Positions 22,940 to 54,401 of a stretch of 64,000 bases of DNA are shown piece by piece. The stretch's first letter is position 1. The number at the start of each line of letters is the position of its first letter. The position numbers were made by a program, and so were the translations under genes. Origin of the DNA: Callorhinchus milii (taxonomy: Eukaryota); assembly GCF_018977255.1 (NCBI RefSeq), contig NW_024704742.1, positions 129,954,001 through 130,018,000 on the forward strand, in the 5' to 3' direction. The notes beneath the pieces were generated by a model that saw only the letters and a list, made by a program, of their open reading frames with translations, ran no database searches and was not told the origin of the DNA.

Positions 22940-23053
22940 CCCTCTCAGTTTGTCTTCAACCACTTTCCTGTCAGCTTCAGCTTGCTCAGCCCTGTCGATG
23001 GCATTTTCCTTGTCCAGTTTCAGCATTTGCATCTTCTTCTTGATAGCATCCAT
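22940..23053 (-). CDS. TPM2: Tropomyosin beta exon 1a: [38 protein letters not shown]
   Basis: Canonical tropomyosin N-terminus, gccATGG Kozak, 114 nt, donor |GTATGA; adjacency to TLN1 supports the TPM2 paralog. Confidence 0.95.
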
Positions 23054-30382: not shown

Positions 30383-31238
30383 CCCATCTTTACTGGAAAC
30401 ACATCAATTTGAAAGGCCAAAAAAGCAGAAGAAAGATGTGCTGCCTGATGTTTATGCACCCTGCTGAAATGCTGCACTATTTATGTACACCTGATTAAAA
30501 ACTTTGAGACAAAGAGTAACATTAATCCAATCAGTATTTTTGACCTGATTTAAGACAACACTATTTCTGGTATTTAGAGGGCAAAATTATTCCATTACGA
30601 ACTTTAACTGATATGTATAGTTTAGTCTCTGTGCAAGTTTAGCTCATGAATGTGAGGCACTGTTTTAGCTTTCCCCCATTGCACCGATAACTCATCTACA
30701 TTAATTTTATATGATTTATAGTGCGTCTCACACACAAAAACCCTTGTGTATCATCTTTGGAATAATCACATATACCTTCCGACTCCATAGAGGTTAAAAA
30801 ATATATCATACAAAAAGCTTCACAGTAAATTTGCAACACAGCATTAATACTGCAACTTTACATTTGCTTTCTCATACCATAGCGTACGCACGTGCAGAGA
30901 CTTTCTCTACGATTAATAGCAAAATATCTAATACATTACTGAATATGTGCAGATGGATTGCTTATAGGACGCAGAAAGATACAGCGAGTGGATTGCACCT
31001 TTACCATACAGATCTAGAAAAATTGGAAAGAAAATCCATTTTGCATGAACTTTTTTTCCCCCCAACAAAATAAAAAAACAATCTGGTCACACAGATGGTC
31101 AACAGTTTGCCTTTCAGGACCAGATGAATTTAATCACCAGATATTTTGCCATCTGACTGCTGAGCTAGATCCATCTATGGCTGACCAGCAAAGACCATTA
31201 GCTGCTTTTAAATGATTTAGTTTAAATTAAAAAAAAAA

Positions 31239-31370
31239 TTAGTTTTGTTCTTCTTCGCGAAGTTCTGAAGGGAGAAATTTGTATTGTTGCTGTCGGATGT
31301 GAGCTAACTTCTTTCGGGCTTCTTCAAGCTCTCTCTCCTTTCTCAGCATCTCTTCTTGGGCTGCAATAAT
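31239..31370 (-). CDS. TLN1: Talin-1 last coding exon (dimerisation helix): IIAAQEEMLRKERELEEARKKLAHIRQQQYKFLPSELREEEQN*
   Basis: Manual translation; cag acceptor; TAA at 31241-31239. Confidence 0.97.
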   Translation of the reverse strand: MIAAQEEMLRKERELEEARKKLAHIRQQQYKFLPSELREEEQN

Positions 31371-32396
31371 CTGCGAGAAGAAAGAAAAAAAGAACCACCA
31401 CAGTCAGCTTTGGTCCTCAGAGTGATTTCACATTGTGCAATAAGAGTGAAGACCATGCGCCAGTTCAAGCACACGATTCTCACCCGGGTCCAGGAAACAC
31501 TTGCTCAAAGCATTTCTATACTGTCCCATCCTTCTGCCATTGCCAATGATCCAGTCAGAAAGAGCTGCAAGCTGCTCCAAGGACTCTGAATAATAATGGG
31601 TTGTGAGGTTTGCAATAGGGACTCCTGAGGTGACTCACACTCATTTTCCTTATTCAGGACCATTTTTCCTTTTCCTAACTCTGAGACACCAAGGCACATT
31701 GTGGAGCCCCTACTTGTCGCTCTGGCTGATAATTCAACTGTGATTCTAACCTGCAACCGTCTGATCTCATGGCTCACCTCTACACTGAAGATGCTTTCAT
31801 CCACTTGGGCATCCCTAGAACATTTATTGTACTTCTAACCATGTCTTTCCACATCAGCTGTCAATCTAATACTCACTAGATCTGATACAGTGACAGAGAT
31901 ATTCCTTCTCCCTCTTCCACTGATACCACATGGAATTACAAGATCATCCACTTTTTACTGTCCAAATAAAGGGGTTACACAAAAAACCTAGATGCTACAT
32001 CGGAGCAAATGACAAGCATCGGCTCTATGGAGAGTGTACATAGCCTACTCTCATGCATTGGTATTTAACAAACAAAACCAGGCAGCATTTAGTCTTCAGC
32101 AACTGTAACATACAGTGGTCCTGTTTCTATTGCTTATGCTGCAGTACATAGGAACAGAGGAACAGGAGCAATTCAGCCCCAGAAGCCTGTTCTGCCATTC
32201 TATAAGATCATGATCTGTACCCCAACTCCAATTACCCACCCTTGCTTCATATCCCTTGATACCTTTACCTAACACAAATTACTCTATTTATAACTATTTA
32301 TAACTCTAATGTGCTACAGCTCAGAAGCTGTAGACCAGGGATTTAAAAGCAGAATCAATTTGGGACCTTGAACTCGAGTTACTGAGCATGGCTTAC

Positions 32397-32525
32397 CTGA
32401 GCAATGCCACCGACCATCTTGCTCTTCACAACAACATTCTCCTCTTCCTGGTCATTGAACGCTGCTGCCTTCTGTGCAGCCTTCACCAGGTGATCTGAAG
32501 CTCTCTTTACAGCATTGCCTGCAGT
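32397..32525 (-). CDS. TLN1: Talin-1 exon TAGNAVKRASDHLVK...KMVGGIAQ
   Basis: 129 nt, GT-AG, talin I/LWEQ region. Confidence 0.96.
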
Positions 32526-33111
32526 CTACAAGAACACACACACGCACACACACAAACAGTCAGTGAAGCTTTAACAGTGAAACCTAATTACTCTATAACT
32601 GCTGAAGTGCTGTCTCAAAATTACAATGTATATATTGTAAACCTCGTGAAGTATATTGAACCACTTTGCAATGATTAGGAACACGTGTCTATGATTTGAT
32701 GGAACCTGGAGACATTGTACAAAGTTTGTGATTTATTTCCACCTTTTGTTACATATTTATAATACACTTTATAATAATGGTCTACCACGTACTCAAGATG
32801 TCTCAGCGGATATATCGTAAAGTGGCATGACTGTGTTTATTTTGTAGGCAAACTGGTTTGGGAATACATCAAATTTGACACAATCTTACCAAAACAGATT
32901 GAACTACTGATCAACAGCTTCAGTTTATCTGACTGCAAAAGAAAGCAGGTCATAAAATTCACTGAATTCTTACACTGGGGAAATTAATTCTTCAATGCTT
33001 GGCTCCTCCGTTAATTAATCCCGATTAATAGGCACAACTGATTTAAACTCTTTCTGAAGGGTAGATGAACTTGGTAAACTAGCCGGGGATTGAGAACAGA
33101 ACACAACTGTC

Positions 33112-33444
33112 TAATAATAATAATAATAATAATAATAATCCTTGCATTTGATATAGCGCTTTTCACGTCGGGAGGACGTCCCAAAGCGCTTCACAGAATA
33201 TACTGTAAAGTCAGTTGACTGTATATTTGTGGGCGAACGCGGCAGCCAATTGCGCACAGCAATGTCCCACAGACAGTCATAGATTGAAAATGACCAATTT
33301 AATTATTGTTTTTATTTTTTGGAGGGATTATTATTAGGCGTGTGGAGTAAGGAAACTTGCCCAAGGTTTCGCCCTCTGCCTGGAATTGAACTCAGGTCTC
33401 TCACTTGCAAAGCGAGTGCTCTAACCACTGAGCTACAGGACTCC
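33112..33444 (-). mobile_element. Full-length tRNA-derived SINE with long (TTA)n tail
   Basis: Near-identical to the 16198 and 40725 copies; ctaataa-like duplication at the flanks. Confidence 0.9.
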
Positions 33445-36400
33445 ACTAATAAGAGGTTTGTTTAAAATGGAAATCTTCAAAGCAGGATTTGACTGAGCTG
33501 TTTGATCTGACAAAGCTGGTGCATTGTGAAATGAGTGCTGGCATCCTCTCTAAACATCTGAAAAGTATGACCATTCACGGGCTTCCGACAACAGCAGCTC
33601 TGCAGTGAGACAATGGATCAGGGCAAATATTTTGGATCACAAAATTCCTGATGTCAGAGATGTGACTACACAGTGCTTCTTGGTCATGTTTTTTGTGAAC
33701 ACTCCCCTCCTCCCTCCCGTGACCCTGGAGGCCCCACTCAATGCTGCCATCCGGCTCTGCCCAAGTGGCTATCCTTCACACTTGAGCTCAGATTATAAAT
33801 GAAGGTTGGCAGGTTATTCAGTTATGAAGGCCATTCACAGATAAGCCCAATCCTGTCCCTCACGGACATCCAGAAGTGATAACAATCAGAAGCAGGAAGC
33901 CTGGCTAATTTTCTCCCTTCCTCACCCAGGGGACAGGAGGGATTTGGAGAGCCCTTACTGCAGCACTGGCTGAGATAACACCAATTCAGCACTATCACAT
34001 ACAAACTTCCAGATTGTGGTCAGATCAGTTTTACTCTAATTTGACACCAATTTAGGAAAGGAAACCAATGAAAATTAAAAACAAGGCGCTTTTAAATCGC
34101 TCCACTGCCTTGCCCCGCCTTACCTCTGTGACTTTCTCTGCCTTGTAGACCTTTCATTTTGACTGTGTTTGTGGTCATATTTCCCCCTCCCCACTCAGCT
34201 CAGGCTCCGTCTCTCTATGAAAAGCTTTGAGATGTCCTCCACCCATGAACGCCACCATATGAACATCAAATTGTTGTGGAGACTATTTTGTTGTTGTTGC
34301 TGTTTTTTTAAACCAAACAGTTTATCATTGTCTATTTGCACATTTGAGGGTCTTTTTGCATGAGCAATCCATCAGCGAGGGAGGTAAGTGGGGTCTCCTT
34401 GGAGCTGAGCTGGCTTCATGGGGATATGCTTGGCAACCGAATAGTGGAAATGAGTCAACTCTCTGTGGCAGTTTTGGTAGTCAGTTCCTGAGCCAGGCAG
34501 GTCCGTAGTATTCCAGCACACTGCTGATGACAGCACAGCCAGCCTGGCTCATTGACCAGACATAGAGAGGCAGATCAGTCACTGGGAGCAAGGACTCATT
34601 CCCCCTCAGCTCCTATTAACCTTGTAAGCCAAAGTCCGAACAGGTAGCATGGTCCTAGCTGGACAAGCAGCAAAAAGCTTGTAGACAAGGCTCTCAATAG
34701 CAAGTTATACGGTTTTAGCTGGTTAACAACAATAAAAGCCCTTCACTTATATAGCAACTTTCATGTCAGGAGGATGCCCCAAGGTGCTGGACAGTTGTGG
34801 GTTTGCAACCGAGCTGGAGGTTGGATTCTGGAGGGATGCGGGCCAGTGGAAAGGGGGGAAGATGACCGAAGATGCAGTCAAAGAAGATATTGAGATGGAC
34901 TTTGAAGGAAGTGAGGCAAGAGGTGAGGTGAAGAGACTCCAGGATGGAGTTCCAGAGAGTAGGGGCAGATAGGCTAAGTTAAACCTCAAGCAGTACTCCA
35001 ACTTACTCTCAAGTCCCTGTCCCTGTACCTCGACTCTTACTGTGCCTAATACTCTCTGGATTTAGATAAGCAGGGTTCATATTCCAGATGCATGGGACTC
35101 TCAGTCTGGTTTAGATACTCTTAAGCATGGTGATGAGTTTCCCACATATGTCAGTCAATCAGAAGACCCAAGATAAAGCTTGATGAACTAGCTGGCTATT
35201 ACAATCTTATTATCATGTGAAATAACTGGGGAGGGGGGAAATAAAGGCAAATAGGTCCTTCCTGGGCTGATTTGGCCCTGAGGAAGCATATGTGACAAGC
35301 TGGGTTGGTCCACAGTAATCCAAGACACTGGTGTTGATTCCTATCAGCTTGTCAGGCTAATCAGTGAGGTTTGGGGGGGGTGATCTCAACCTTCTGAGTC
35401 AAGGCCCCAAAGGGAGGATCGAGTTATGTGGCTCAAATTACTAACAACAACTTCACAAGAGTTACTTGGAGTAAATCACAAGAGAGAACCAGATACAGAA
35501 AGTCCTTTGGCTCTTTTGATCTGATCTTAACCAGAGTCTAAAACCCATCACCTTGGTCTAATAACTTGGGGTCATCAACAAATGTTATAACGTTAGTGGA
35601 AGGAGGCGTGTATGTTAGGACGTCTTCCCACCGTGAAAGGCACTAAAGAAATATAATTTGTTGTTGAAGCATCGCCCTGCATAACATTTCTGCGTAATGT
35701 GAACTGACCACTGTGAGACTCCACTCCTCAGCTCAGACTCCCTCTGCACTCCTCCCCGCCATTCACTCTCACATTCTTCTTTCTGTTGCAATTATTCAGA
35801 ACACCCCTTGGGCTTTAGTATATTGACTATTTTTGTGCTCCAAATTGCAGAGAGTGGGGTATTTATGAGGTTAAATATAGGACAGCGGCTTAACTCAACC
35901 AGTGTCCTGTGAAGTGGGAATTGGATCCTGCCTCGAGTTGATGTAAAACTTATTTTTGTCCCGCTGTAACTGAGCAGGTATTCAAGATGGCGGAAGAACA
36001 AAGAGCCCACAGACCAGACTATTGTGCTGCAATATGGTGTGGGGAGGGGGGAAAAAGGAAAATTATATTCAGATCTGAAAATAGTAGATAATCTGACCTA
36101 AATTCCATAGCATTTGTATAATCCCTCCATTGCTCAATCCCTCCAAAGAGCACAAAATTGCACCAATCTGAAATTCACGGTTTATCACCTTTTGATACAG
36201 ACTTGGAAAGGAGAAACTGAAGAAGCAGGAGGCTTCACATCGAGGGAATGAGTGGCCTTGAGTTTGTATTGAATGGTAACAATATCAGCAATCACACCTA
36301 GAACAGCTAACTACAACCTTCTTGTCAGCATGTTCTGTAGCTAATCCAGGCAGTACCTTTATCCACATCCACCTGGAGAGTGGAGGACTTTTTCCACACA

Positions 36401-36479
36401 AACAAAAAAAACCCAATGCAGTTTTAACTGTGGCTGAAACCAGATGAAATATATCCCACACGGTATAAACGTTCCCTAC

Positions 36480-36662
36480 CTGGAGTCGCTTCATGGCTTC
36501 TGAATCCTGGTCTGCCTTCACCTTGCAGGCCACCAGTAGCTGAGCTGTGGACGCTGCCACCTGTTTGGCTGAAGAGATGAGCTTTTCCTCGCTGGCGTGA
36601 CCCTGAACTGCGGAATTGGCCGCTTCACACAAGCTGCTTGTTGCAGCGGCGACCATTCGAGC
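36480..36662 (-). CDS. TLN1: Talin-1 exon ARMVAAATSSLCEAAN...SEAMKRLQ (R13)
   Basis: 183 nt, GT-AG; seen in ORF track. Confidence 0.97.
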
Positions 36663-37411
36663 CTGTTAGACAGATAATCATCAATGAGCCATCATCCGAG
36701 AGAGAGGTCACAAACCAGTCATTCAAACCCAGAGGCACATATTTCACAGCAAAGCTAACCCTGCTCATTTTATGAGTCCCACCCTACCTCCGTGATCTCC
36801 TGTGACTCGACCAACCCAGCCACTCCCTTCACTGAGTGAACACCGGTCTGGTTCACATCCCCCACCCTTTCCATGCCACCCCATGGTGGTGAGCTTTCAG
36901 TCATTCTACACCGCTCTTTGCAACTCCTTACCAGAGTCTCTCTAACTTGTCCCCACACTTTCAAAGCCTACCACTGGACTTAACTCCTTACCTCTTTAAT
37001 TTTACTTTTGGTTGACTTTCACACCCCCATCCTTCTCAGCTCCCCACCCCTTTCCCAGCTGTGCAACTTTGAAACTTCCTCCCCAGGTGAAAGGTGGCAT
37101 ATAAATGTAAATTGTATTTGTAATATCAAATTCAATTGATTTTACGTATTCTGAAACACCTGAAGGTGAACCTGCAACATTTTAACATGCCTTCATATGG
37201 CTAACTTGAGTCCAGTGCAGGATCAGAGAATTGGGAGCAAAATTCCTTACAAGAGCAATTGTATAAGTTGTATAAGGGAGAAGTCATAAAGCTACAGTTC
37301 GCTAAATGTTTCATTGCAAATATATACAATCAGAATCAACCACCAAATTGACCAACAACGAGGTGGGTGGGTGTTGGGGGGGAAAGCAAGAACCTTGAAG
37401 ATTATACCTAC

Positions 37412-37474
37412 CGCTGAAATCAAGCCTTGAGACCACTGGCCGTCGTCCACTGCGTTTGCTGGGACCGCTCCAAC
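37412..37474 (-). CDS. TLN1: Talin-1 exon VGAVPANAVDDGQWSQGLISA
   Basis: 63 nt, GT-AG. Confidence 0.96.
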
Positions 37475-37980
37475 CTGCAAAAAAGGAAATGGTGAGAAAA
37501 TGTCTTGAACATGAGCATGTGCAGTGTTTCATCAGTTCCCTCACTGCAGCTGTTCAACAATCCAGTCAGACAAGGACAGTTAGAAAAGGACTGGGGCGAT
37601 AGTGAGGTTTACAAATCAGACGTTTCGACTTTGGGCATGACTTTATACCAAGTTCCCATTTGCCAGTTTAGCTGGATACTAAAGGTCCCCTGAAGCTTTG
37701 GAAAAGACAGAAGGGGAGATTCTCCCATTGCCCTGGTCGAAAATCCTCCAGATTAGTCATTCATCACATGACTGTTTGTGTGATCTTGCTATGTGCAAAA
37801 AGGCTGCCAGAATTACCTCCAAGTGCAGTCACTACACATTAATGAGACAATAATTACAGGCCAAACGCTCTGGAGGATTCAATGTGATGCTGCGAACTTG
37901 AAACTCGTCTCTTTGGCAGAGTGAAGGAAAAAATAAAATAATATTTCCACTTAGCGGTTTGTGATTGTGAATATTCTCAC

Positions 37981-38106
37981 CTTGCCTTGAGCCACAAGCT
38001 CTCTCTGAGCAGCGGACGCAGCTTTCACGAGTGCACTGGTTGCTGCAGCGATGGACTTCGCTGCCTCCAGGATCTGTTCTTCGAAGTTGAGGCTTTCGTC
38101 GGCTTG
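37981..38106 (-). CDS. TLN1: Talin-1 exon QADESLNFEEQILEAAK...LVAQGK
   Basis: 126 nt, GT-AG. Confidence 0.96.
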
Positions 38107-38865
38107 CTGTCAAACAAACAAAAAGAAGATTTAATTTGTAAACGAAACCGATGACCATTAAATTCTAGGAGTAAATTCTGCCTTTCTCCCTCCATGAACT
38201 TTTTCCCCTCACCTCTTCTGAGGGCGTTGTCTTCTTTTGGCTATTCCTAGCAATACATTTCCAAGGTCACCATTGTCATGGACAAGTGCCCACAGCTCAT
38301 GAGTGTTGGCAAACTGTTTCTGCAGAGGGCATCACAGCTCAGCCTGATTCTGTCCTCACCTGACGCCCACAGCCAGGTTAGGGGCTGTGTGTGTGGGAGG
38401 GGTGGGTGGGGGGATTGGAAAGGGGATGGGGAGAGAATCTAAGAATCGTGAGGCCCATTTCTCCTTCCCTAATCCAGGGCAATGCAGTCAGTTATAGCAT
38501 TCAGCTATTGTTTGGTTCAGATCCGTAACTCAGCACAGTCTGGCATTCGAACTTGCAACCTTCTGGTTGCCTTGTACCCAATGAGTGAGACAAGAGTCCT
38601 GCACTAAAGTGTATTTTAAGTCAAACAAATTTGCAATGATCAAAATTCACCAAACAAATTAACATGAACTCAAGTGTAAAGAGGTGACCATAAGATGAAT
38701 TGAAATAAACTGAGAAACGCTGAATATTTTACATTTGTAAAAACAAAATGTTAATTATGAAGTTAGCTGAGAAACTACACAATGCTCACGGATGAAGTGC
38801 TAAACACAGGGTTTCATTTACACTCACATTTCAATAAGGCACTTTTGAAATGCTGTACAGACAAG

Positions 38866-38939
38866 AAACTATACAAATATGTTTGATATATCGTTGAGTT
38901 TGAGTAACAACCTAACATAGCAAACATATCAGACAGTCG
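38866..38939 (-). ncRNA. MIR190: miR-190 family precursor, intronic and sense to TLN1; predicted 5p UGAUAUGUUUGCUAUGUUAGGU at 38931-38910
   Basis: 5p differs from miR-190a-5p (UGAUAUGUUUGAUAUAUUAGGU) at 2 non-seed positions; 3p arm CAACGAUAUAUCAAACAUAUU pairs with it over about 20 bp; 11-nt loop. Confidence 0.92.
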
Positions 38940-39407
38940 CTTGTAATAATAATTTGATTTGAAAAACGAATGGTTTTAATCAGTAAATGGACCTGAAGCT
39001 ATGTCTCAGGCCTCGTAAATTTTTTTAATTGTTTTTTTGGTCGGCCGGGTATCTGACACATGTGGAAACCCATCACCGTGCTTAAAAGTATCCAAACCAA
39101 ACTGAGAATTCCATGCATCCCATCTATACATAGAAATTCCAGAGATAGACTGTTGGGATGGAATGCGCACTCTCTCCCTGGAGAGACGGATCCTGCTTAC
39201 CTAATTCCGGAAAGTATTAGGTTGGCAAGAGACAAGGCTTGGGGGAGCTCAGGGTGTGCGTTGGGGCTAACTGCTGGCCTCATAGGGCTCACAAATAAAC
39301 CCCTCACGCCACGGAGCTATAGTACTAGAGGTCACTTGAGCCCCACGCTGCAGGAATGCAATGAAAACTCAGATTGCAGGAGCTGTGCGCTCAATAAGCC
39401 GCATTAC

Positions 39408-39727
39408 ATAATAATAAATAATCCTTGCATTTTGATGTAGCACTTTTCACATCCTGTTGGCGTCTCAAAGCGCTTCACAGAATAGACTGTAAAGTGAATT
39501 GACCGTATATATTTGTGGGCAAATCGCGGCAGCCAATTGCGCAAAGAGGTGTCCCACAAACAGTCATTGATTAAAAATGACCAATTTATTATTGTTTTTT
39601 TGTTTTGGAGGGATTATTATTAGGCGTGTGGAGTAAGGAAACTTGCCCAAGGTTTCGCCTGCCTAGAACTGAACCCAAGTGTCTCGCTTGCAAGTCGAGT
39701 GCTCTAACCACTGAGCTACAGGATTCC
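39408..39727 (-). mobile_element. Full-length tRNA-derived SINE
   Basis: Same family as 16198-16522. Confidence 0.88.
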
Positions 39728-39900
39728 ACATGGGGTTGATATGCAGAAGGGCAGTTGCAGGATTCCTCTCTGATGTATGCCTAAAGAGGCCCACAATTGG
39801 TCTCAATGTCCCTGAAGTGGATGGGAAAATTGACCACGCTGACGTCCAGGTGATCCACGCTATACTGCTGATCGGCAGTGTTTTCAACAATTAGGCTTAC

Positions 39901-40025
39901 CTTGGGTTTCGCCCTTGGCTTCAGCTGTTCGAGCTTCTTGGCTGCAGCCTCAATAGCAGCAGCAGCTCCCAGCAACTCATTCTCAGCGATGACCGTCGGG
40001 TCTTCAGGATCTACCCATTCAGTGC
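39901..40025 (-). CDS. TLN1: Talin-1 exon (G)TEWVDPEDPTVIAENELLGAAAAIEAAAKKLEQLKPRAKPK
   Basis: 125 nt, phase 1/0; AENEL/AAAAIE residues match TLN1 rather than TLN2. Confidence 0.97.
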
Positions 40026-40724
40026 CTGAGGGGTGAAACCAGAACAACCGCTTTAACAACACAACCCAAGCTATGGGAGATCATTTCCCTTCATCGGTGG
40101 CCTGCACAAAATCATAGTGTTTAATGTCTCATCCGTGCACCCTGGCATTGTGACAAATCATCCCCACCTCAATTTGAGGTTGGTTTGTCAGCGCCTTGGG
40201 ACGTCCTCCCGACGTGAAAGGCGCTCTATAAATGGAATGTTGTTGTTGTTGTTGTTGTTGTCCAAAAGTGATCTACAGGTGGCATTTTATGCAAGAAACA
40301 GAGAGAGAGAAAAAAGAATAAGTCAGCCTCTTTGTCCCAAGCTAATTTGATACTCTGTGTTCCAGAGAAACAACATGCACAGATTTGTATTCATCCTCAT
40401 CCTCCCCTCCCGAAGTGAGGTCTTTTCAATAGACTCAGTTGTACCAGTTTGAAAGTCGTTGCAAGCATTGTATGTCTGAGGTTTGCGCCATTTTATTGAA
40501 CTCAATCTTACACAAGGGCCAGGAGTGGGACAGCAGCTTAGCACCATTCCTTGAAACCGTCCTTGCCACAAACACATCACAACCCAAGATGGCATTAAAC
40601 CACATGGCACCACATTAGAACTTCATCCACTTGACTGGATGACTCTCTCCCTCCCCTTCCACCTCCCCCCAGTGCAGCAACTTCAACTGGTGGCATTCCA
40701 TATAAAGAAATCAATTGACGAAGA

Positions 40725-41043
40725 TATTATAATAATAATAATCCTTGCATTTGATATAGCACTTTTCACATCAGGTGGACGTCCCAAAGCGCTTCACAGA
40801 ACACACTGTAAAGTGAATTGACTGTATATTTGTGGGCAAACGCGGCAGCCAATTGCGCACAGCAATGTCCCACAAACAGTCGTAGATTGAAAATGACCAA
40901 TTTATTATTGTGTTTGGTGTTGGAGGGATTATTATTAGGCGTGTGGAGTAAGGAAACTTGCCCAAGGTTTCGCCCTGCCTGGAATTGAACTCGGATCTCT
41001 CGCTTGCAAAGCGAGTGCTCTAACCACTGAGCTACAGGACTCC
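40725..41043 (-). mobile_element. Full-length tRNA-derived SINE
   Basis: Same family as 16198-16522. Confidence 0.9.
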
Positions 41044-41651
41044 TGATTCCTGACTCCTGATATTCTAAAACATTACATCATAACAAATTGTAAATCAGTG
41101 AACCTTACAAGACACTGACTGGGCAAACAATAACCTTCAAAACTATGAATATGTTGGGGTCTAGTCAATTCTAGGAATTTCTTAGTTTATGAATTTGTTT
41201 GTGTGCGTGTGTTTTTAAGCTTCATTTTTTTGCTTGTCGACTCCCGTAGTCAAAACATTCACTCAGCTAGATTGGAGAACACCCAACGCTCTCACTTTGC
41301 CAAAGACCAAATGCCAATTACATTAAGTCAGTGTTGAAGATATGAAGTATTTCTCTCCCCAGAATGTGTACGTGTGAGTGTGTACACGCATGCAAGGCTT
41401 GAACCAAGATTGAAGAGAATTGTACTGTAATTACATTATGCACTTGAACAAATAGATATAGAAGGATAACGTGCAATTTCATTAGGTTCATTGTGTAATT
41501 CAGTTTGAGGCTGTTTGTGGGACATTGCTGTGTGCAAAGCAGCTGCTGAGTTCACCTGCAAAATTCATAGTCACTACACTTCACAACATATCCCATGAGA
41601 CATCCTCCTGACATGAAAGGAACTATATCAAATACAAGGAATAATTATAAC

Positions 41652-42355
41652 TGTATTGGAGTTGAGGAGATCAGTGAGGAGAGCGTTGGGAAAGTACTCT
41701 CCTAGAGATAGTGCCCCGGATGTGGGATTCATCAGCGCTGATGGCAAAGGAGGGAGGGAAGCCGGCAATGTTTCAGAGAGGAAAAGAATATCGTCCCTCA
41801 ATTCATGGGATCTGGGAGTTAAACAGTTCATGTCAAGGGCTATGCCAAAGAATGGACACCACTTGGTTAAGCTAGAACAAGCAACTGGAGAGAGCCACAG
41901 TCAAAGCACCTCAATGTTGGCAAGAGGCAGACGGTTTTAGTTTCGCCGACATGATGTGTAAAAAACGTGGGTTCCATTGGGACTTGATGTCAGACATGGC
42001 AGACAGACAGAAGAGCAATGACCCTGGAATCGAGGGGATACAAGTAGAATTAAATCATCAGTGGAGTGGACATGGATCAGCTGCAGAGCATGCTATGCAT
42101 TTACCCTGCGAGACGTGGAGAGCTCAGAGTGCTGCTAATTAAAGAGTAAAATGCGATCTGAAATTAAACCCTTGGAGCTGCAATGCGATACACAAGCTTA
42201 TCGTGTTCGACAGTCTCAATGCAGTGGGGATTTACAGACTGAATTGCAGCCTGAGATGAATAAAAGTTTCGCTGTTTGCAGAATTGTCTCCAAAACAGAC
42301 CCAAGTCAAAGAAATACTGATGCGAATGTCTCACACTCACACCGACAGTAAAACA
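41652..42355 (+). mobile_element. Solo LTR (704 bp)
   Basis: TGT...ACA termini, flanking 5-bp direct repeat ATAAC (41647-41651 and 42356-42360), AATAAA at 42259-42264. Confidence 0.7.
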
Positions 42356-42708
42356 ATAACCACCGCATTTGATTTAGAGCACTTCACGTCGGGAGGATGT
42401 TTCAAAACGCTTCATGGGATTTGTTGTAAAATGCAGCAACTGTGAATTGCGTAGGTGAAGCCCTATAATGTCTTCCTTTACCTCCTTTCCCTCTCTTTCC
42501 CCTCTTTAAATCACGACCGAGAGCATTCCTCTTCGACCGTGCTTACAGGCACCTCCTCCGTTTCCCTGGCTCGGAGTCAGGTTCCGCCACTGTTAAGCTC
42601 TCTGAGACGCTGCCCCGCGTGAAGGGCGCTATATAAATTCAAGTAGTTGTTGTCTTCTCTATTAGCTCAAGGAATCCTATTGTCCTGTGCCCCCCAGGCC
42701 CTCCTTAC

Positions 42709-42814
42709 CCTTCATGGCCTCTGCGGCCTGGATGAGCTCAGTGACAGAGCCAGCTACACGTTTGGAATATGCGGCAAGTTGCTGCTTGAGTTCTGGTGAT
42801 GGCTTTTGAAGAAT
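42709..42814 (-). CDS. TLN1: Talin-1 exon ILQKPSPELKQQLAAYSKRVAGSVTELIQAAEAMK(G)
   Basis: 106 nt, phase 0/1, GT-AG. Confidence 0.96.
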
Positions 42815-45602
42815 CTGTAGAGAAGACAGACAAGTCCGAAAAAAATTAATTGTTTTGCTTCAATAAAACGTCTCCTTATTAATCCTCCTAAAGATACCTC
42901 AAAGCCGATATTCTGTTCCACACCATAAATTACCAGCTAATATCTTGAGGCATCTTCGAAGATTAATTTGATTCTCGGTTACCATGTCTATTTATAAACA
43001 TCAGTAAAACAACGTAATTGAGGTGAGGAAATGTCAAACTTTTGCACTGAGCCCAAAGTGGCTTTTAGATCTCCTTTAATGTGAAAAATGGGGAAAGAGC
43101 AGGGAATTGGGATTAGAGTAGTTAGCTCTGCAATTTCTAAGATTCTATGAACCTGCTGTGGTTATTATAGCATAACCCTATCATTGCCGCCCTGTCTCCC
43201 TCAAAAATAAAATGTTCTTAAGAGTTATGCAGTCTTAATTCCAACTATTAACACAGTCACTTGGGGTCTTATTCATAATGCCCCCAAGTCCAAGTAGAAG
43301 GAGGCTGTATAAACACTACCATGTTTTGTGGAGCTTCATATTGAACATTGCCTCTTACCAAATCATAAGTAAACTAACAGGTAAATCTACTGCATTACAA
43401 TCTGGGTAAACGAAGGCTCAGGATCCTATTAATGAGGGCAGGAAACCTGATCTTTAAGTTCTGCACATTTTGGCATCTTGATTTGACATTCAAAATTAAA
43501 GAGCAATGTAAACGAGAATATCAGACTGCAGAGTACACTATTACTGACAACAGATTTCAAACCTACTTTGAGAGGGTAACCTTTTCTTTTCAATTTGAAT
43601 TTTAAGGCAGAAGCAAATTCTGCTGTAAAGAAAAAAAGTTTTATCCTTTCCCGCTTTTATCATGTGTTTTCTCCTGTTTAAGCCACTGAGATTGTCTTTG
43701 ACACAAGCTATTTTGATGTTAAACCTTCCTCCCTCTGTGCTCTGAAATGTCCTATAAAGGGAACAGCTGACTTATTTTCCATAAATTGCTCATGGCTTCC
43801 GACATTCAGCTGTCATCGCCTTCATTTAAAGAGCACAGGTTGATACTCAAATTCCTCTCCCTTCAGCAAAGCCAAGGCTGAGATCAGGATCTGATCTGAA
43901 ATGAAATTACTACCAGTGCGCAACTTTTACAGGCTGAACCCCCCCCCCCCCCCCGCCCCCCCAACCCCTCCCCCATTGAATACCCTGGATTGCTGATCGT
44001 GTGGGTGTACTGTGGACCATACACTTCATATGCTGAATAACAGACTTCCTGCATGTTGCATTCCATTTGCAAGAAACATCACCCAGTCATCACTTTGTGA
44101 AGGAAGTAAGGTCAGGAGCAAGATAATGATCCTGGAAGCGGTTGACCGGTGGCCATTTTGTCCGCATGCCTCCTTGTAACACACGACCAGAGCTTACAGA
44201 CCCAAGACCATGTTATAAAGGTGGTGGTGAGCGAGGGAGGGGCGGCAATAATGAGCTCAATATACAATATTTCCTCCACCTGCTTTCATGGCTTTTGGGA
44301 AGCAAATATCAAAAGCCATTGAATTTGGGAATATTCATAAAATGGCTAACCAATTTCAACTGAGGCAGAGAGCTTGCTGGATTCAAAAACATACAAAATT
44401 TAGCCCATAAAAATCCAATTTGCAAATATCGCATATTAGGCCTCAAATTTGAATGGATTTTTGAGTGACAGCCAACCCAAAAGAATCTCGGAAATCTCTC
44501 TATACTCACTGAGCTTATTACTGACAAAGCGGCCCAAAAATAATTCGCAATTCTGTGCATTCTGTGCTTTCATCAAAAAAATGCATGCAATGGAGCTGGA
44601 AATCAGAACACAAGCATGCCATAACACATCTCAGCACTAATCCACAAGCCAGTGCTGTTTGCTCAACACATTGTATTTCCATCTGGTGCTATCGATATGT
44701 TATGTTTGACCAAGCTCCACACAGCTGAGTTTACATAAAGTAACATGTTAGTAGTTCAGGTTAGGGAGGGGGAATTCAATGGGAAAAAAATTATCATTTC
44801 ATCCCTGGAATGAAACTCCACCGTAAGAAGTGAAATTATATTTTTTCAATAATGCAGACATGACCTATTGATATTACAGTATATAGAGCAACTGAATCTA
44901 TTCTAAAACAAGCTCACAAAAAACAGAATTCATCCCCTAAAGTGGTCAACTCCAAGCATCCTCTCACAGTTGTAGGGAGTGGAATTTATTGATATTTCAT
45001 CATATTTCTAAAAAGGTTGGAAAATGGACATCAGATTCAATGAACTGGGTAAAATTTATCAGCAAAGTTTGGTGTGGTGACGCCGTGTGTGAGAACACTC
45101 TGAAATGTTCAATTAAATTACCATCCACCCTGAAAGTTAGTTTCCTCCCAAGAACCCACAGACAGAAGGGGCAACCATCAGATTGCTAAAGTTTTTGTTT
45201 AGTTAAATTAGCAATAAAACTACTCCATTTCACCCTTTTTTTCCCACAAATATTCATTAACCCCCCAACACCAGACCCACTAGGAACATTTCTTAATATG
45301 GTAAACAGGATCCTGGATAAGCTCTCCCTCTCCTTCCCCTCCACCACCCAATGGGGCAGATATAAGTTAGACTAAAAATCTCTGCTGTTAAGATTGACTT
45401 TGTATTTCTAGCCTCAAGGAGACACTGCATGTTTGGTCAGCCATATGATTCTGTCCTACAACTGCATCTGGGATGTTGACCACTGATGGAATTAATGCTA
45501 CGCCTCTTCTCAAGTTCCCGTTCCCTATATCTGTACACACTCATGCACAAGGAGTGAGAGCAGAGGCACATTGCCTGCTGCAACACACTCAGGGCTACTC
45601 AC

Positions 45603-45605
45603 CGG
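45603..45605 (-). CDS. TLN1: Candidate 3-nt alternative microexon of talin-1 (CCG, Pro)
   Basis: Long pyrimidine tract, tttcaaag|CCG|gtgagt, about 150-nt AG-free zone upstream, TGCATG about 55 nt downstream. Confidence 0.45.
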
Positions 45606-46341
45606 CTTTGAAATAAAGAGGAAGGAAAAATATAAGATGGATGGGGTGGGGAAAATAGAAGAAAAGAAAGGGGAAACAAAACACATAGGTGATTCAACAA
45701 AGATGTAATGCAACAAACAAACAAACAAACAAAAAAATGTGGAACGATGGAAGGTTTGCTTTTTTTTAATAAAAACAAAGTCGAAAAACATATTCCCCAC
45801 TTAGGTCCTTGAGGTGCCTGGGATTGATGCTGAAATGTTACTTTCCAAAATTATTCTCTGACACAATGATAGCACCCAATCTATATAGGAATAATCCTTG
45901 CATTTGATGCAGTGTCTTATCACATTGTCAAAACGTCCCAAAGTGATTCACCTGATTTAATGTAAAATGCAGTGACTGTGTTTTGTAGGCAAACTGAATT
46001 AACAGAATGAAATGAACTTATCACGGGTTAGTTTACACTTCCCAGAAGCTCTCTGAAGAAAGTGCATTCTTCATTTTACACTTTAAAATGCATATTTTAA
46101 TATTAAGATCCTCAAAGAATTGAACAATCAAATGCAGAGGGTGCTTTCCTTGCTGAATGTTTTTCTCTCTTATTAAAAAAGCTAAAGCTCTACAGAATTA
46201 ACATTTTGGATGGATGCTTTCCCCCCACTCCCTACATTTTGAGAGCAAGGAGAATGAAAACGGAGAGAGAGAAAAAAAAAGTTTGACCTTTTAGAAGAGC
46301 TTAAACCATTTAAAGCACGCTGCAAGCTCGCCAATACTTAC

Positions 46342-46449
46342 AACAAGAACGTGCTCCAAAAGACCCAGATATCCTTCCGAACATTCTTTGCCAAAACGCA
46401 GGGCGCGGGCGCGAACATCTGGGGACACCTCTGGATGATGGGCTGCTTG
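46342..46449 (-). CDS. TLN1: Talin-1 exon QAAHHPEVSPDVRARALRFGKECSEGYLGLLEHVLV
   Basis: 108 nt, GT-AG. Confidence 0.95.
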
Positions 46450-47034
46450 CTGCAAAGAAGTCAAGTGAACAAAACATCATTATTACATATTTAACTACTG
46501 AATATAGCTGCTAGTTACGAGTACAACACCTGAAGGTGGGTACACAAGCACTCAGCCAGCACCTCTGGATTTTATATCTGAGTAAAAGTCGCCACCTGAA
46601 CTGGTCCTTCACAAGTATTTCAACTCCCCAAAGGGCTCAATTCACAAAGTTGCTGTTGAACACAAAACTGAGCTGTTACAGACCGAGAAGACCCCAGTTT
46701 CAATTTTGGCCAGTGCTGAGTTTGCTGATCTCAGCTGGAGCTACAATTGACCACAATGTCCCTGGGGCTGAGCAGAAGAGGGCCGTTTGTGTACATGTGC
46801 GAGACAGAGAGAAAGAAGAATGACACAGTCAGCGTTAAAGTTCTTGACCATATCCAGTGACCATCCCTTGATGTGACTACACGTGGAGGTCGAGTGTGGA
46901 CAGGATAGGCTCAGCTGCAATACTCTCAGTGACTAAATATGTCATTACCTAATGTTCAGGATTGCAAATGAAGAGCAACAATTTGGGTGAGATACTAGTC
47001 AGCCAATTCCTTAGAAATTATCATGGTCAGCCAA

Positions 47035-47430
47035 TGCTAATAATAATCCTTGCTGATGTGGTACCCTTCACATTAGGAGAATGTCTCAAAATGCTTCAAA
47101 GGATTTACTGTAAAATGTACTGACTTTGCATAATTGATTGCTGCGTTCTACTACAAAATACAACGTCCCACAAAACTGCCATGACCAATTTTATTTGTGG
47201 GATTGTTGGGCAGGGGGAATCTCCCACTCTTTTCAAATAGTGCCACGGGACCTTTACGATGACCTGAATAGGTAGAAGGGACCTTGGTGTAACATCTCAC
47301 CTCAAGTACGGCACTTCCAACAACCCTCAGCACGGCACTGGAGGGTCAGACTGGACTAAGTGTGTTCAAAGTCTTGATGTGGGGCTTGAACCCACAACCC
47401 TCTGATGAGGTAGGAGAATGCTACCAACAA
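47035..47430 (-). mobile_element. DeuSINE-like SINE
   Basis: Reverse-complement similarity to 3439-3855. Confidence 0.65.
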
Positions 47431-47488
47431 GGCCAGTCTGATGCCCGATGATATAAAAAAAATACTACTGGTATTGCAGCTAAGTTAC

Positions 47489-47674
47489 CTTGCAAGAGTG
47501 AAGCATCTCCGCGATAGCTTTGCGACTGAGATTGGCAGTTGCAATGACATCCTCTTGACGGCAGGAGTTTCCTGCTGCCACTGCTTTAGCTGTTGCAACG
47601 GTAATGCCTTTAGTCATACGGATGAATTCCTCAGGTGTAGAGGTGTGTGGTGGCGGATCTCTGGAGGAGAACAC
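47489..47674 (-). CDS. TLN1: Talin-1 exon VFSSRDPPPHTSTPEEFIRMTKG...AEMLHSCK
   Basis: 186 nt, GT-AG. Confidence 0.97.
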
Positions 47675-48246
47675 CTGAAAAAAAACAAGGGGATCGTCAA
47701 TGAATTGGCAAAATCTTCCATTCACCTTCTTTATGCTGTCCCTTCCCTGCCTACAACATATATATTTAATGGCTGGAAGTAAGACTTTCACAACTCCAAC
47801 CCATGACCTGTGTCAAAATAGTACCTGCAGATGATCTTCAAGCATGACAAATAACAAATGTAATTTGTAATCAGATCACCCCTCAACCTCCTAAACTCAA
47901 GGGAATGTAAGCCAGGTGTATGCAACCTGTCTCATAATTTATTCCTTTAAGCCCTGGTATCATTCTGGTGAATCTGCGCTGTACCCTCTCCAGAGCCAAT
48001 GTATCTTTCCTGAGGCGTCATGCAGACCAAAAGGTCGCAGGACTGATATTTTGTCTATGCTGAATTAGATGCACTCACCCAAGGTCACAGTTGGGGATTT
48101 GCAATCGAGATCAGAGTTCTAAAGATAATGTTAGGGTTTTCACTTCTGATAGCTACGCAGACACTCCTACTGGAAGGTATCCATTAGGACATGAGGAGAG
48201 GACAATTTGCCAACATTCATTGTCAAGGCTCTCCATTGCATTTAGG

Positions 48247-49613
48247 CAACAACAACAACAAGATTGCATTTATAGAGCACCTTTCACGTTGGGAGGACGT
48301 CCCAAGGCGCTGGACAGTTGGGTCGGGACCCGAGTAGGGGGGAAATGGTCAAGGTGAGGGAAGGGAGGGAGGGAGCGAGGAGGGGGTAGAGAGTCGAGAG
48401 GGGAGGTGAAGGCACGGTTGAAGAGAAAGGTCTTGAGACCGGCCTTGAAGGAGGAAAGGGAGGAAGCAAGGCGAAGGCACTGGGGGATAGAGTTCCAGAG
48501 CCTCGGGGCTGAGAGGCTGAAAGCCCCGTCACCAATGGTAGGGCGGGGGATGTGGAGCAGACCGGTGCTGGAGGAATGGAGGGTACGGGCAGGTAATTAG
48601 GGGGATAGTAGGTCGGAGAGGTAGGAGGGAGCAAGGCCGTGAATGGCCTTGTAGGTGAGGATGAGGATCTTGAATTCGATCCTCTGGGGGATGGGGAGCC
48701 AGTGGAGGCGAGCGAGGGTGGGAGTGATGTGTTCCCGAAGCCTGGTGCGGGACAGTACACGAGCTGCAGAGTTCTGAATGACCTGCAGCTTGTGGAGGGA
48801 GGTGCCGGGAAGGCCGACGAGGAGAGAGTTCCCGTAGGTGAGGTGATAAAGGCGTGGACCAGTGTTTCAGCAGCGTGAGGGGTGAGGTAGTGCCGTAGTC
48901 TGGCGATGTTCCGCAGGTGGTGGAAGGCGGTGCCAGTTGTGGCGCGGATGTGGGGAAGAAAGGACAGCTCAGGGTCGAACAGAACACCGAGGCTCCTGAC
49001 TGGCTTTGAGAGGTGGAGAGTGCAGCCTTGGATGCTGATGCTGTCAGCGCTTGAGGAGCGGAGGCGCTGACGTGAGCCAATCAGGAGGGCCTCAGTTTTG
49101 CGCACGTTGAGCTGAAGAAAGTTGTCTCTCGTCCAGGACTCGATGTCGGACAGGCAGCTGTCAGGACATCGGTGGTCGTGGAGTTGAGGGTAGAAGAGGA
49201 AAGGTAGAGTTGGGTGTCATCCGCATACATGTGGAAGTTAACCCCATGTCTGCGGATGATGTCACCGAGGGGGAGCATATAGAGGGTGAAGAGGAGGGGA
49301 CTGAGGACAGAGCCCTGAGGGACACCGCACGAGACAGTGCGGGAGCTGGAGGAAAAGCCGTTAGCGTAGACAAAATGAAGACGGTGGGAGAGGTAGGACC
49401 TAAACCATTCAAGGACAGGGCCTTGAAGGTTGAGGTGGGAGGACAAGCAGTGGAGGAGGATAGAGTGGTCGACAGTATCGAATGTGGCCGATAGGTCGAG
49501 GAGGACGAAGAGGCAGAGGGAGCCCTGGTCTCAGATGGTCAAGATGTCATTAGTGATCTTGACCAGGGTGGTTTCCGTGCTTTGGGCAGCACGGAAACCC
49601 GACTGGAGTGGTT
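48247..49613 (-). mobile_element. 5'-truncated L2 LINE with reverse transcriptase remnant (frameshifted)
   Basis: [46 protein letters not shown]; (ttg)n tail. Confidence 0.95.
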
Positions 49614-50217
49614 CAAAAAGTGTATTAAGAGGGCCACCATTATATTAAGAGGGCCCCCATTGATAATAAATTTATTACCCAAAATAATAAATTCACTCAA
49701 TTCACGAATGTTTGTGAGACACTGCTGTGCGCAATTGGCTGCTGCATTTCATCCAGAAAATAGTCAATTCACTTTACAGTATATTCTGTGAAGCGCTTTG
49801 AGACATCTTGAAGATGTAATGAGGCGCTATATCAAATGCAAGGAGTATTATTATTGAACTATAATAATTTATGCAACTGATACAGAGCTGGTGATGTCGA
49901 AAAGGGTGAGTATTTGCAGGCACACCCAGCAGTCAATCTGCACATAGCAATGAACTTGAGGAGAAGTGGGGGGCAATCAAGAGAAGTGAACAGAAGGGGG
50001 AAATTTTCCACAATAAGGAAAATCTAGAAATATAAATACATCCGAAGCAACAAATCACAACTTACATTTACACAAAAAAAATTAAAAAGATCAACAAGGA
50101 ATCTACAAACCAACTGAAGTCTTTTTTTGACAACAAAAAAGTGCCTCGGAGGCACAGAGGTTCTCTATAATAAGCAGCGCTTTGCTCTTTTAAAGAGACT
50201 GAATGTGCAATACATAC

Positions 50218-50334
50218 TGCAAGCTCCTGACGGATGTGCTCAGTGGTCGCTTCCAAGGCTCTGGTGCCTCGAGTGGCTTCATCTTCCACCGCCTTCACTG
50301 TCTTCAGTAGAGACGTCACATTGGTCACCATAAC
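50218..50334 (-). CDS. TLN1: Talin-1 exon VMVTNVTSLLKTVKAVEDEATRGTRALEATTEHIRQELA
   Basis: 117 nt, GT-AG. Confidence 0.97.
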
Positions 50335-50734
50335 CTAACATGGAGAGATTGAGAGGACAGACATCAGTGCTCATTAAAGGCATATTCTTGCCTTTAAGTT
50401 GGTGTGTGTATTTGTTTGTGGGAGGAGGAGGGGGTGAATGGAAAAGGGATTGTCATTAAGAGAATGAATAGTGAGTTTCTCAGTCACAGAGGGAGAGACC
50501 CACACAATACATCAGCAACAAATTCTTGCATTTATATAGTGTCCTTCACACAGGAGAGTGGCTCAGAGCGCTCACACACAAAGAACTGCCACTTTAAACA
50601 AGATACCAGAGGGCACCTGTGGCACTGTACACCCTTACACAAAGCACTCATGCATTTAGGAAAGGCATGGAGTGAAGCAACAGATTTAGGGATTTCAACT
50701 ACACCAGACACGGGGTTTTGTTTAGCAATCTCAC

Positions 50735-50860
50735 CTTGGCCGCATTCTTGAGCTGATACATGGACGGATCATCCGGAGCCTTTCCAGCGGCGCCCTTTGT
50801 GGCACTGATGAGATCTCCCAGGGCCTTTGCCACATCTTTCACCGCATTGATCAGCACGAC
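50735..50860 (-). CDS. TLN1: Talin-1 exon VVLINAVKDVAKALGDLISATKGAAGKAPDDPSMYQLKNAAK
   Basis: 126 nt, GT-AG. Confidence 0.96.
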
Positions 50861-52159
50861 CTGAACAAAGACAACAAGGGGACAGGCTGGTCACCACAAA
50901 CATAAACCTTTACATCACCTAACAAGATCCTATAAGCACAATGCTGGCCATTTCACTGTAGTTTGCTGCCATTGTAATCACATTGTAATCACAAGCACAG
51001 TTGAACAGTTCTCAGTTGGTCAGGTTTTGGACCATAAGGGGGGCAGAAAGCAAAAAAAAACAACCTCAAACGAAACCCGGGGGTGGGGGGGGGGGCAGCA
51101 TGGTCAAAGGTGAAATTATCAGAGTGAACAGATAAAGAAAGATTCTAAAATAGGAACTGAATCACAAGATAACCAATTTGCCACAGTAACCACACTGGCA
51201 GACAAGGCAAGCTTGTTGAATATTTTGTTTTACAAAAAAAATGAATTTTGTATCACAGAATCTTCATGCAAATTAAGCTCCTGCTGCCAATGCCTATTCA
51301 GTGTAGAAATATGAGCAGAATGATCTGTGCTTGTGTTATCGCACTAACCAATGGTGCTGGACTCTACAGGGACATTACACACAGGGTATTCAACTGCCGC
51401 AGTGCACAACAGCACCAAACACTTAGGTACTTGGTTGATTAAGAATTCAATGGCCAATGATCACACAATTTAATATTTCAGATCCAACGCTACTCGTGGT
51501 GGACTGAGGTGGTTTTACGACCAATGTGACAAGTTCTCCACTGTTCACAGCAACTCAAGTTTTAACAGAGAACCTATACGACTGATGCAAATATAATCAT
51601 TACTCTATTAAAATACTAATCCATTGTGACGACTAACTTTGTGAACAAATACCCGGTTGCAGCCACACTGGGCTTGCTGGAATGAGTGATTGCTTGCAAC
51701 AAGCCAATTTCATTGCTTACAACGGTTTCACTGCTGGTTAGGTTACGTGATGTGCCAATGCTGGCAGAGCAACTTTGAGTAACGGGAATTTACATTTGCA
51801 GCAGCATCACAAAATGTGAAATATTTCCTACCCTGCTGTTAAGGAGTTGCAGCATGAAGTGATAATTATTTAACACCCCAAAAGGCACTGGTTTCACTTA
51901 TCATTCCATTTGAAACAAAACTAAGAAACCTGCAGTGAAATGATATGGCGGCTGAAAGCGGTTGTGTGGCAATAGAAAATACGAAACATATGAAGGTGAC
52001 TGTAACTTTCAGGGAAACCAGCTGTGCAACAACAACCAGATGTGCAACCATTACTAGACTGAACCAATGTGGGTTTTCCATTAGGAAAGAACATTTTAAA
52101 TATATCTGTGTGAGTGCAGCAAAACACGCATAGATAATTATTTGGGGAGGACTAGTTTG

Positions 52160-52283
52160 CAGGGCTATGGGGAGAGCGCGGGGGAGTGGGATTGAATTGG
52201 ATAGCTCTTTTAAAAGAGCCGGCACAGACCACGATGGGCTGAATGGCCTCCTTCTGTGCTGTATAATTCTACGATTCTATGAA
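52160..52283 (+). mobile_element. CR1-clade LINE 3' end
   Basis: gatgggctgaatggcctccttctgtgctgtataattctacgattctatga with octamer-type tail. Confidence 0.8.
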
Positions 52284-52515
52284 GTTTGATCTGTATAAAT
52301 CATATAATCGACTAAGTCCCATGTCAAGAGTTTATATTCTATGTAATTTGACATAACTCATACTTTGCATAAATCATATTAAATGTAGGGTTCTAACTGA
52401 TACGACTTGTGTGAGGTTTACTGTAAAGACATTTTGGGGCTCAGGTGGCAAAGAGTATGCAAACTTATGGTTTACCGTCCAGCTCGGGTCCAACTCCTTA
52501 ACTGTCCAGCGCCTT

Positions 52516-52775
52516 ACAACAACAACAACAAGATTCCATTTATTGAGCGCCTTTCACGTTGGGAGGACGTCCCAAGGCGCTGTACAGTTGGGTCAGGACC
52601 CGAGCATTGGGGGGAAATGGTCAGGGTGAGGGGAGGGAAGGGAGGGAGCGAGGAGGGGGTAGAGAGTCAAGAGGGGAGCTGAAGGCACGGTCAAAGAGAA
52701 AGGTCTTGAGACCGGCCTTGAAGGAGGAAAGGGAGGAGGCAAGGCGAAGGCACTGGGGGATAGAGTTCCAGAGCC
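52516..52775 (-). mobile_element. Young L2 3' fragment nearly identical to the 3' end of 48247-49613
   Basis: Long shared stretches, e.g. aaagagaaaggtcttgagaccggccttgaaggaggaaagggagg. Confidence 0.9.
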
Positions 52776-52915
52776 AACCTTAGGATGTCCGCCAGACATG
52801 AAAGGCCCAATCCAAATGTAATTTGTTGTTGTTGTTATAGGCAGAGCAGGCCACCCAAAGTGAACAAAGTTTCGAAGAGTTAAAATAAAGGGTTTTTCTT
52901 GCAAGAACTTTTTAC

Positions 52916-53099
52916 CTGTGTTTCAGGATCTTCAGAGCCCAGACTGGCAGCTCCTAACTTCACAACCTCAGCCAGACGAGTAATAGTGACAACAGAGGAC
53001 TGAGCTGCGTGGGCCAGCTTCTCCTGACTCGCGGCAGCTCCCGATACCAGCAGTTTGGTGTCTTCCACCAGAGCTTTAGCTGTCTTCAGGATATGTTCC
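52916..53099 (-). CDS. TLN1: Talin-1 exon (R)EHILKTAKALVEDTK...LGSEDPETQ
   Basis: 184 nt, phase 2/0. Confidence 0.97.
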
Positions 53100-54234: not shown

Positions 54235-54401
54235 CTGTGATCGGCGAAGGTCTCTGCGTTCTCTCGGTTCAGTGTGCCCGCCGTAGCAAACATGATGGTT
54301 GTATCCAAGTCAGCAATGATGCCAGACACGGTGCTGGCAGCAGTAATACAGGCTTGGGTGCCACGGTTACCTGCCTGTAAGGCTGCCAACACGTGAGAAA
54401 C
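54235..54401 (-). CDS. TLN1: Talin-1 exon VSHVLAALQAGNRGTQACITAAS...AETFADH(R)
   Basis: 167 nt, phase 0/2. Confidence 0.96.

Follow-up and report, generated by a model that had tools for sequence, protein, structure and literature searches.

A mir-190 hairpin in a talin-1 intron of the elephant shark, probably the missing 2-alpha paralog of miR-190a

The talin-1 gene of the elephant shark (Callorhinchus milii) carries a mir-190 family hairpin, sense to the host, in an intron homologous to the talin-2 intron that holds miR-190a. We consider it probable that this hairpin is a retained and still-processed 2-alpha ohnolog with the miR-190a seed, i.e., a would-be Mir-190-P2. The locus itself has been on record since 2014; an identification as the missing 2-alpha paralog was not found in the literature searched. 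The window referred to below is the whole stretch of DNA that was analysed, 64,000 nucleotides of contig NW_024704742.1 (here C1), and all coordinates are positions in it.

Talin-1 host gene and its talin-2 counterpart

The host gene and the exons that flank the hairpin are laid out in the window as follows.

31239..63263, minus strand: talin-1, 3' portion, with 21 exons that encode about 950 amino acids and contain no stop codons
39901..40026, minus strand: upstream talin-1 exon, ending in KPRAKPK
38107..39900, minus strand: talin-1 intron with the hairpin (1,794 nt, GT-AG); its homologue in talin-2 measures 923 nt and contains miR-190a
37981..38106, minus strand: downstream talin-1 exon, starting with QADESL

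The original prediction had placed the hairpin in sense orientation in the intron between the exons that end in KPRAKPK and start with QADESL, and the GT-AG intron 39900..38107 bears this out. The 5' part of the gene runs about 54 kb past the end of the window. An exon search of the genome assembly gave two talin loci, one on C1, which holds the window, and one on contig C26. For the talin tree, the joined exons of both loci were combined with 27 database proteins (28 were picked from at least 120 matches, and one stickleback row was left out for its short coverage). In this unrooted tree, which has no outgroup and in which the labels are the source names, the branch between TLN1 and TLN2 has a support of 100/100 and separates the window protein, which groups with TLN1, from the C26 protein, which groups with TLN2. 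The window talin is 81–87% identical to named TLN1 proteins and 72–78% identical to named TLN2 proteins, and, judged by its sequence, the host gene is talin-1. The 21 compared exons span about 32 kb in talin-1 and about 20 kb in the C26 talin-2, and the talin-1 coding span is about 87 kb; the size order in the elephant shark, with talin-1 larger than talin-2, is the opposite of that described for mammalian talin genes in a review (PMC6032930).

On C26, talin-2 has a canonical miR-190a (Rfam 84.1 bits) in the homologous 923-nt intron, so that the occupancy of this intron, which had been put forward as a check, is found in the elephant shark genome itself. The hairpin part aligns between the two host introns over 63 of 75 columns, with a score of 88 compared with at most 32 in 100 shuffles. 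Outside the hairpin, the introns align solely over one high-copy repeat. A second match between them was considered as a conserved element and rejected, as it is this shared repeat. A reading of the talin-1 hairpin as Mir-190-P1 was also rejected, since its host is talin-1 and a separate talin-2 copy is present on C26.

Several repeat-like features were noted in the window. The very high-copy repeat in the host intron lies at 39032-39222, about 90 nt upstream of the hairpin, and has a related copy in the talin-2 intron. Five matches to the tRNA family (40970-41041, 23932-24011, 33376-33438, 16204-16266, and 39658-39722) look like heads of a tRNA-derived SINE and not like tRNA genes; the same repeated sequence adjoins each of them. 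Two more strong single hairpins on the minus strand, at about 24116-24205 (very A+T-rich) and about 11351-11440, have no Rfam match and are probably inverted or simple repeats. Positions 1-2000 and 48001-50000 are G-rich and of low complexity, with a strong GC skew.

Fold, arms, and conservation of the hairpin

The hairpin, its predicted arms, and the places of the processing motifs have the following positions.

38865..38940, minus strand: mir-190 family precursor hairpin (Rfam RF00672, 59.6 bits; fold z −3.5)
38910..38931, minus strand: predicted mature 5p arm (from the alignment and from the miRDeep precursor of 2014, which begins 20 nt earlier)
38873..38893, minus strand: predicted 3p (star) arm (from the fold, with a 2-nt 3' overhang assumed)
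38907..38909, minus strand: apical UGU motif (sequence and alignment; also in miR-190a)
38852..38855, minus strand: CNNC motif, 18 nt past the predicted 3p end; both miR-190a copies have it at an equal offset
38944..38945, minus strand: place of the basal UG, reading UA (UG in both miR-190a copies)

The match to RF00672 covers the full model (1-78 of 78) with an E value of 3.3e-9, and its score is to be compared with a gathering threshold of 48 bits. The stable minus-strand stem that had been proposed is recovered as one stem-loop of −26.4 kcal/mol for 38850-38955 (z −3.5), which none of 200 shuffles equals. The basal stem reaches to about 38861-38944, and the sense and antisense folds of the hairpin give −20.4 and −13.1, respectively. 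The 5p arm starts at 38931 and carries the intact seed GAUAUGU at positions 2-8. Compared with miR-190a, both in the elephant shark's own copy (L001) and in an unrelated one from a metagenome (L072), it differs solely at positions 12 (A to C) and 16 (A to G), exactly the two changes that were named at the outset. The 5p/3p duplex has 16 pairs and the terminal loop 11 nt, where MirGeneDB-type criteria ask for 16 or more base pairs joining the two arms and a loop no shorter than 8 nt, together with mature reads of homogeneous 5' end and star reads that give a 2-nt 3' overhang.

The earlier statement that the 3p arm pairs well holds, yet the pairing is weaker than in miR-190a: the duplex is at −14.1 compared with −18.1 kcal/mol, and the precursor at −14.8 compared with −20.4 kcal/mol. 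Position 12 of the duplex is a C-U mismatch, and the predicted 3p seed is unlike that of miR-190a-3p. The basal UG, apical UGU, and CNNC are optional microRNA processing motifs, and two of the three (UGU and CNNC) are present in the talin-1 hairpin. The mismatch, the weaker stem, and the missing basal UG are what could be expected from the main rival of a working ohnolog, a decaying copy that is barely processed and under little selection, and for which the published call of 2014 would come from few reads. We regard such a relic as unlikely. The hairpin has an undamaged seed and both of its long paired stretches, in an intron that otherwise can no longer be aligned with its paralog, and the UGU and CNNC motifs have been kept.

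A comparison with a second species also bears on this rival. The contig of this species covers the downstream exon and intron positions 38461-39009. At least seven changes are found in the exon, all of the listed ones at third codon positions, and the intron has 56 substitutions and 12 gap letters. At least 33 of the substitutions are in 38524-38789, and all eight indel events are in 38583-38757, which leaves at most 23 substitutions, themselves without placement, and no indel for the rest, hairpin included. About 7 of 37 sampled 31-mers from 38700-39100 are shared by the second species; 23, 18, or 14 substitutions placed at random would give such sharing with P values of 0.001, 0.008, and 0.036, respectively, if all shared 31-mers come from 38790-39009. 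These values hint at a long unchanged stretch and, with the lack of indels across the hairpin region, speak against decay.

The known talin-2 intron copy, miR-190a, belongs to 1-alpha. The talin-1 copy resembles it in the homologous intron and sense orientation, the seed, the placement of UGU and CNNC, and the tropomyosin gene that follows the host (PMC2702505, PMC3675212), but differs in C12, G16, the 3p seed, the weaker stem, and the lack of both the basal UG and the common 5' flank. A more recent origin, in which a later miR-190a copy entered the talin-1 intron by gene conversion or local duplication within the cartilaginous fishes, would agree with the closer likeness of the hairpin to miR-190a (UUAGG tail, 3p arm) than to miR-190b, and with a 3' flank in which the elephant shark's miR-190a matches the window at 22/34 positions, as near as it is to the unrelated miR-190a (20/32). 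Such a late copy is nevertheless very improbable. The precursor of the talin-1 hairpin is 83% identical to that of the elephant shark's miR-190a, which in turn is 95% identical to the unrelated one; in counts, the talin-1 precursor is equally far from both miR-190a copies (50/60 each), and these are 56/59 alike. The greater distance of the talin-1 hairpin from miR-190a is therefore as expected for an older split. The 5' flank that the miR-190a copies have in common (22/31) is not found in the window (15/31 and 13/30).

Invertebrate mir-190 points in the same direction. The single insect talin hosts miR-190, so that the ancestral single talin already hosted it, as far as the published account goes (PMC2702505), and a mite has a mature arm of equal length, which makes the longer arm probably ancestral (PMC10722260). 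The mite sequence differs from the talin-1 copy in having A12 and U16 (PMC10722260), and the host of the invertebrate mir-190 is a single talin.

The talin–tropomyosin linkage group and the published record

Both talins sit head to tail just upstream of a tropomyosin gene on the same strand.

22946..23053, minus strand: first coding exon (1a) of the tropomyosin after talin-1 (PF00261 match)

By synteny, the tropomyosin after talin-1 may be TPM2. Compared with PDB sequences, it scores 48.0 bits against beta and 47.8 bits against alpha tropomyosin, and a protein search with it returned no match. An alternative first exon of type 1b lies at 961-1086 on the minus strand, and a 2b exon at 21182-21307; exon 1b of TPM2 is missing in mammals and present in chicken. 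The assembly has three tropomyosin loci, the third of which is on contig C21. Around it, no talin match was found, nor any mir-190 in the 80 kb scanned. A Rab8-like exon follows the C26 tropomyosin, and RAB8A was not found beside that on C21.

In the nomenclature of Peterson et al., P1 corresponds to 1-alpha, P2 to 2-alpha, P3 to 1-beta, and P4 to 2-beta, and in the parts available to us Mir-190 has just two entries, P1 and P3, in the gnathostome ancestor and likewise in elephant shark, coelacanth, and human; mir-122 serves as the single 2-alpha marker of linkage group C (PMC8789304). We find mir-122 on the contig of the window, C1, at a distance of 4.4 Mb (62 bits, under its cut-off of 70). 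The 1-alpha marker mir-184 is on contig C22 and not on C26, and C26 is therefore tied to 1-alpha solely via talin-2 and miR-190a. Copies of mir-7 and mir-9 are each present on C1, C21, and C22, from which C21 is 2-beta by elimination. The linked marker microRNAs thus place the talin-1 hairpin in the empty P2 (2-alpha) slot; both linkage to the markers of linkage group C and a homologous position in a paralogous host are found. The idea of a third ohnolog of a talin–miR-190–tropomyosin cassette is accordingly upheld by the TLN1 host (100/100), the homologous talin-2 intron, the tropomyosins, and the 2-alpha markers.

We propose that an ancestral single talin carried miR-190 in the homologous intron and that the first vertebrate genome duplication would have produced talin-1 and talin-2, both with the hairpin inside and a tropomyosin gene behind; the talin duplication is placed before the split of jawed and jawless vertebrates in a review (PMC6032930, as far as available). 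The catalogued bony vertebrates would then have kept the talin-2 copy (miR-190a) and the 1-beta copy (miR-190b) only, and the elephant shark also the talin-1 copy. According to the catalogues, mammalian TLN1 has lost miR-190.

The 1-beta copy was not recovered here. In the assembly, miR-190b was not found by an Rfam search in which 68 of about 155,816 candidates were scored, nor by a two-arm pattern or BLAST. A 15-mer pattern gave 19 matches, with the talin-2 one as the sole mir-190. Exactly two mir-190 copies, those of talin-1 and talin-2, were thus recovered. The 1-beta part of the linkage group is probably absent from the assembly, because there are three tropomyosin loci only and no miR-190b was found. 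In mammals, miR-190b lies by TPM3, outside a talin. It shares with the talin-1 copy the family, the seed, and an identical first 11 nt, but has A12 and lacks 2 nt in the stretch from position 15 to the GGUUG tail (PMC8600408). An assignment of the talin-1 hairpin to Mir-190-P3 was rejected, since its sequence differs and mir-122, the 2-alpha marker, is linked to the window. A pattern scan of metagenomes gave 77 loci; among the best 30 of the 77 by fold, there is one true miR-190a (L072) and no talin-1 variant, and none of the 77 has talin exons.

The elephant shark genome paper reported microRNAs from small-RNA sequencing of 16 tissues, and the available parts of its tables list four mir-190 family loci, all of them miRDeep calls; two lie in introns, one is exonic, and one is on a scaffold of 3.2 kb (PMC3964593). 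One of the intronic loci, scaffold52_18604 (JX994456; Supplementary Tables III.1 and III.3), is in an intron of 1,793 nt and is listed merely as family mir-190, homologous to mouse miR-190-5p; its rows in these tables hold no host gene or paralog assignment (PMC3964593). The other is in an intron of 923 nt, the length of the C26 talin-2 intron (PMC3964593). The start of scaffold52_18604 plus 20 nt falls 825 nt from the intron end, which is the window 5p start at 38931, and the published talin-2 precursor likewise starts 20 nt before its 5p arm, at an offset of 603 nt from the intron end. The match of JX994456 to the window is by position and not by sequence; the introns differ by one nucleotide (1,793 compared with 1,794 nt), and the offset from the intron 3' end is identical. 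On the published positions, scaffold52_18604 is almost certainly the talin-1 hairpin locus, and the suspicion that it may already be catalogued proved right in the form of an anonymous "mir-190" entry of 2014. The excision by miRDeep begins 20 nt ahead of a read stack, and the start 20 nt before 38931 therefore gives indirect support for a processed 5p arm with reads that start at 38931, the 5' end named in the original prediction.

The call may derive from cross-mapped miR-190a reads, but C12 and G16 both fall within the first 18 nt, and default mapping would keep copies apart when their differences lie there. Two points of the published record fit the decaying copy better. The published precursor is 109 nt compared with 110 nt for miR-190a, which suggests a shorter dominant read (PMC3964593), and the locus is missing from MirGeneDB 2.1, where the available material gives Mir-190 as P1 and P3 only in both elephant shark and catshark (PMC8728216). 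The curators may therefore have seen and rejected the talin-1 copy. The comparison with the Mir-190 paralogs of this release, which had been suggested for the hairpin, thus shows an empty talin-1 slot (P2). The name "Mir-190-P2" does occur in the supplement, where it is the old ID of P3 in at least 20 of 24 occurrences (PMC8728216).

With two Cmi entries in MirGeneDB and exactly two copies in the assembly, the talin-1 hairpin could in principle already be Cmi-Mir-190-P3, a misfiled paralog for which the label alone would be new, but this is very improbable as well. A third 5p-homologous locus is listed in the table of 2014, on the 3.2-kb scaffold and with another precursor length (PMC3964593). 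In the Cmi sheet, as far as available, P3 is in the first three rows, away from the 2-alpha markers, and P1 is among Mir-184, Mir-147, and Mir-204-P1, where the ordering of the rows appears to be positional (PMC8728216). No fourth tropomyosin was found in the assembly, which therefore probably lacks the 1-beta region. We infer from these partial records that Cmi-Mir-190-P3 is the small-scaffold locus and not the talin-1 copy.

In the literature searched, mostly outside subscription journals, no paralog assignment for a talin-1 mir-190 was found. No paper was found that joins mir-190, talin, tropomyosin, and TPM3, nor one that joins mir-190, talin, host gene, paralog, and duplication. A vertebrate "Mir-190-P2" was not found in the main texts of papers, the name being met in fluke papers; a 13-mer of the talin-1 mature arm was present solely inside an unrelated siRNA; and mir-190 is absent from the main texts of a bamboo shark paper and an ohno-miRNA paper.

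Predicted function, position 16, and evolutionary meaning

From its sense intronic position, the hairpin of the retained ohnolog would be co-transcribed in the talin-1 pre-mRNA. Cleavage by Drosha and then by Dicer is suggested by the stem, by the two motifs present (UGU and CNNC), and by the miRDeep call of 2014. The 5p arm from 38931, with a 5' end that is the weakly paired one, would be loaded as guide and, with a seed identical to that of miR-190a, should repress miR-190a seed targets in cells that transcribe talin-1, probably at a lower yield. The changes at positions 12 and 16 would alter 3' pairing alone.

The talins themselves carry candidate target sites.

30609..30616, minus strand: candidate 8mer site for the miR-190 seed in what is probably the talin-1 3' UTR; the stop codon lies 623 nt upstream, and the AATAAA follows at 30382

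In talin-2, a 7mer-m8 match to the miR-190 seed is found 36 nt after the stop codon (C26:6658333), before the first AATAAA. The shuffle probabilities are 0.021 for talin-1 and 0.016 for talin-2, and about 0.003 jointly for any 7mer, for matches that were noticed post hoc in 3' UTRs with ends predicted from poly(A) signals. Self-regulation of the host via miR-190 sites in the talin 3' UTRs is possible on these predictions, and no claim of host feedback by miR-190 on talin was found in the parts of the literature available. A bolder reading, to which we give little credence, is that the ancestral talin was self-limiting, with an intronic miR-190 and a site in its own 3' UTR, that both talins hold both halves, and that the talin-1 copy is functional and was lost in bony vertebrates. 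If this were true, the published P1-specific change at position 16 would predate the first genome duplication.

A preprint by Peterson et al., in its available part, treats position 16 of Mir-190-P1 as paralog-specific. The talin-1 copy has a G at 16 and shares its longer arm with miR-190a and mite miR-190. The aligned arms agree just as well with a purine at 16 that would be older than the first duplication and a deletion that P3 would have undergone later, and the talin-1 copy thus questions one published paralog-specific change.

With an ordinary microRNA mechanism and a deposit from 2014, the value of the finding is curatorial and evolutionary. As a 2-alpha ohnolog, the talin-1 copy takes a vacant place among the reconstructed microRNA paralogs of vertebrates, and adds one more 2-alpha retention to the counts behind the argument for biased subgenome retention, as presented in the available part of PMC8789304. 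It supports the talin–miR-190–tropomyosin block as a pre-duplication unit. The most recent ancestor shared by all jawed vertebrates would have possessed three Mir-190 genes and not two, and the loss of the microRNA from talin-1 would have been late, lineage by lineage.
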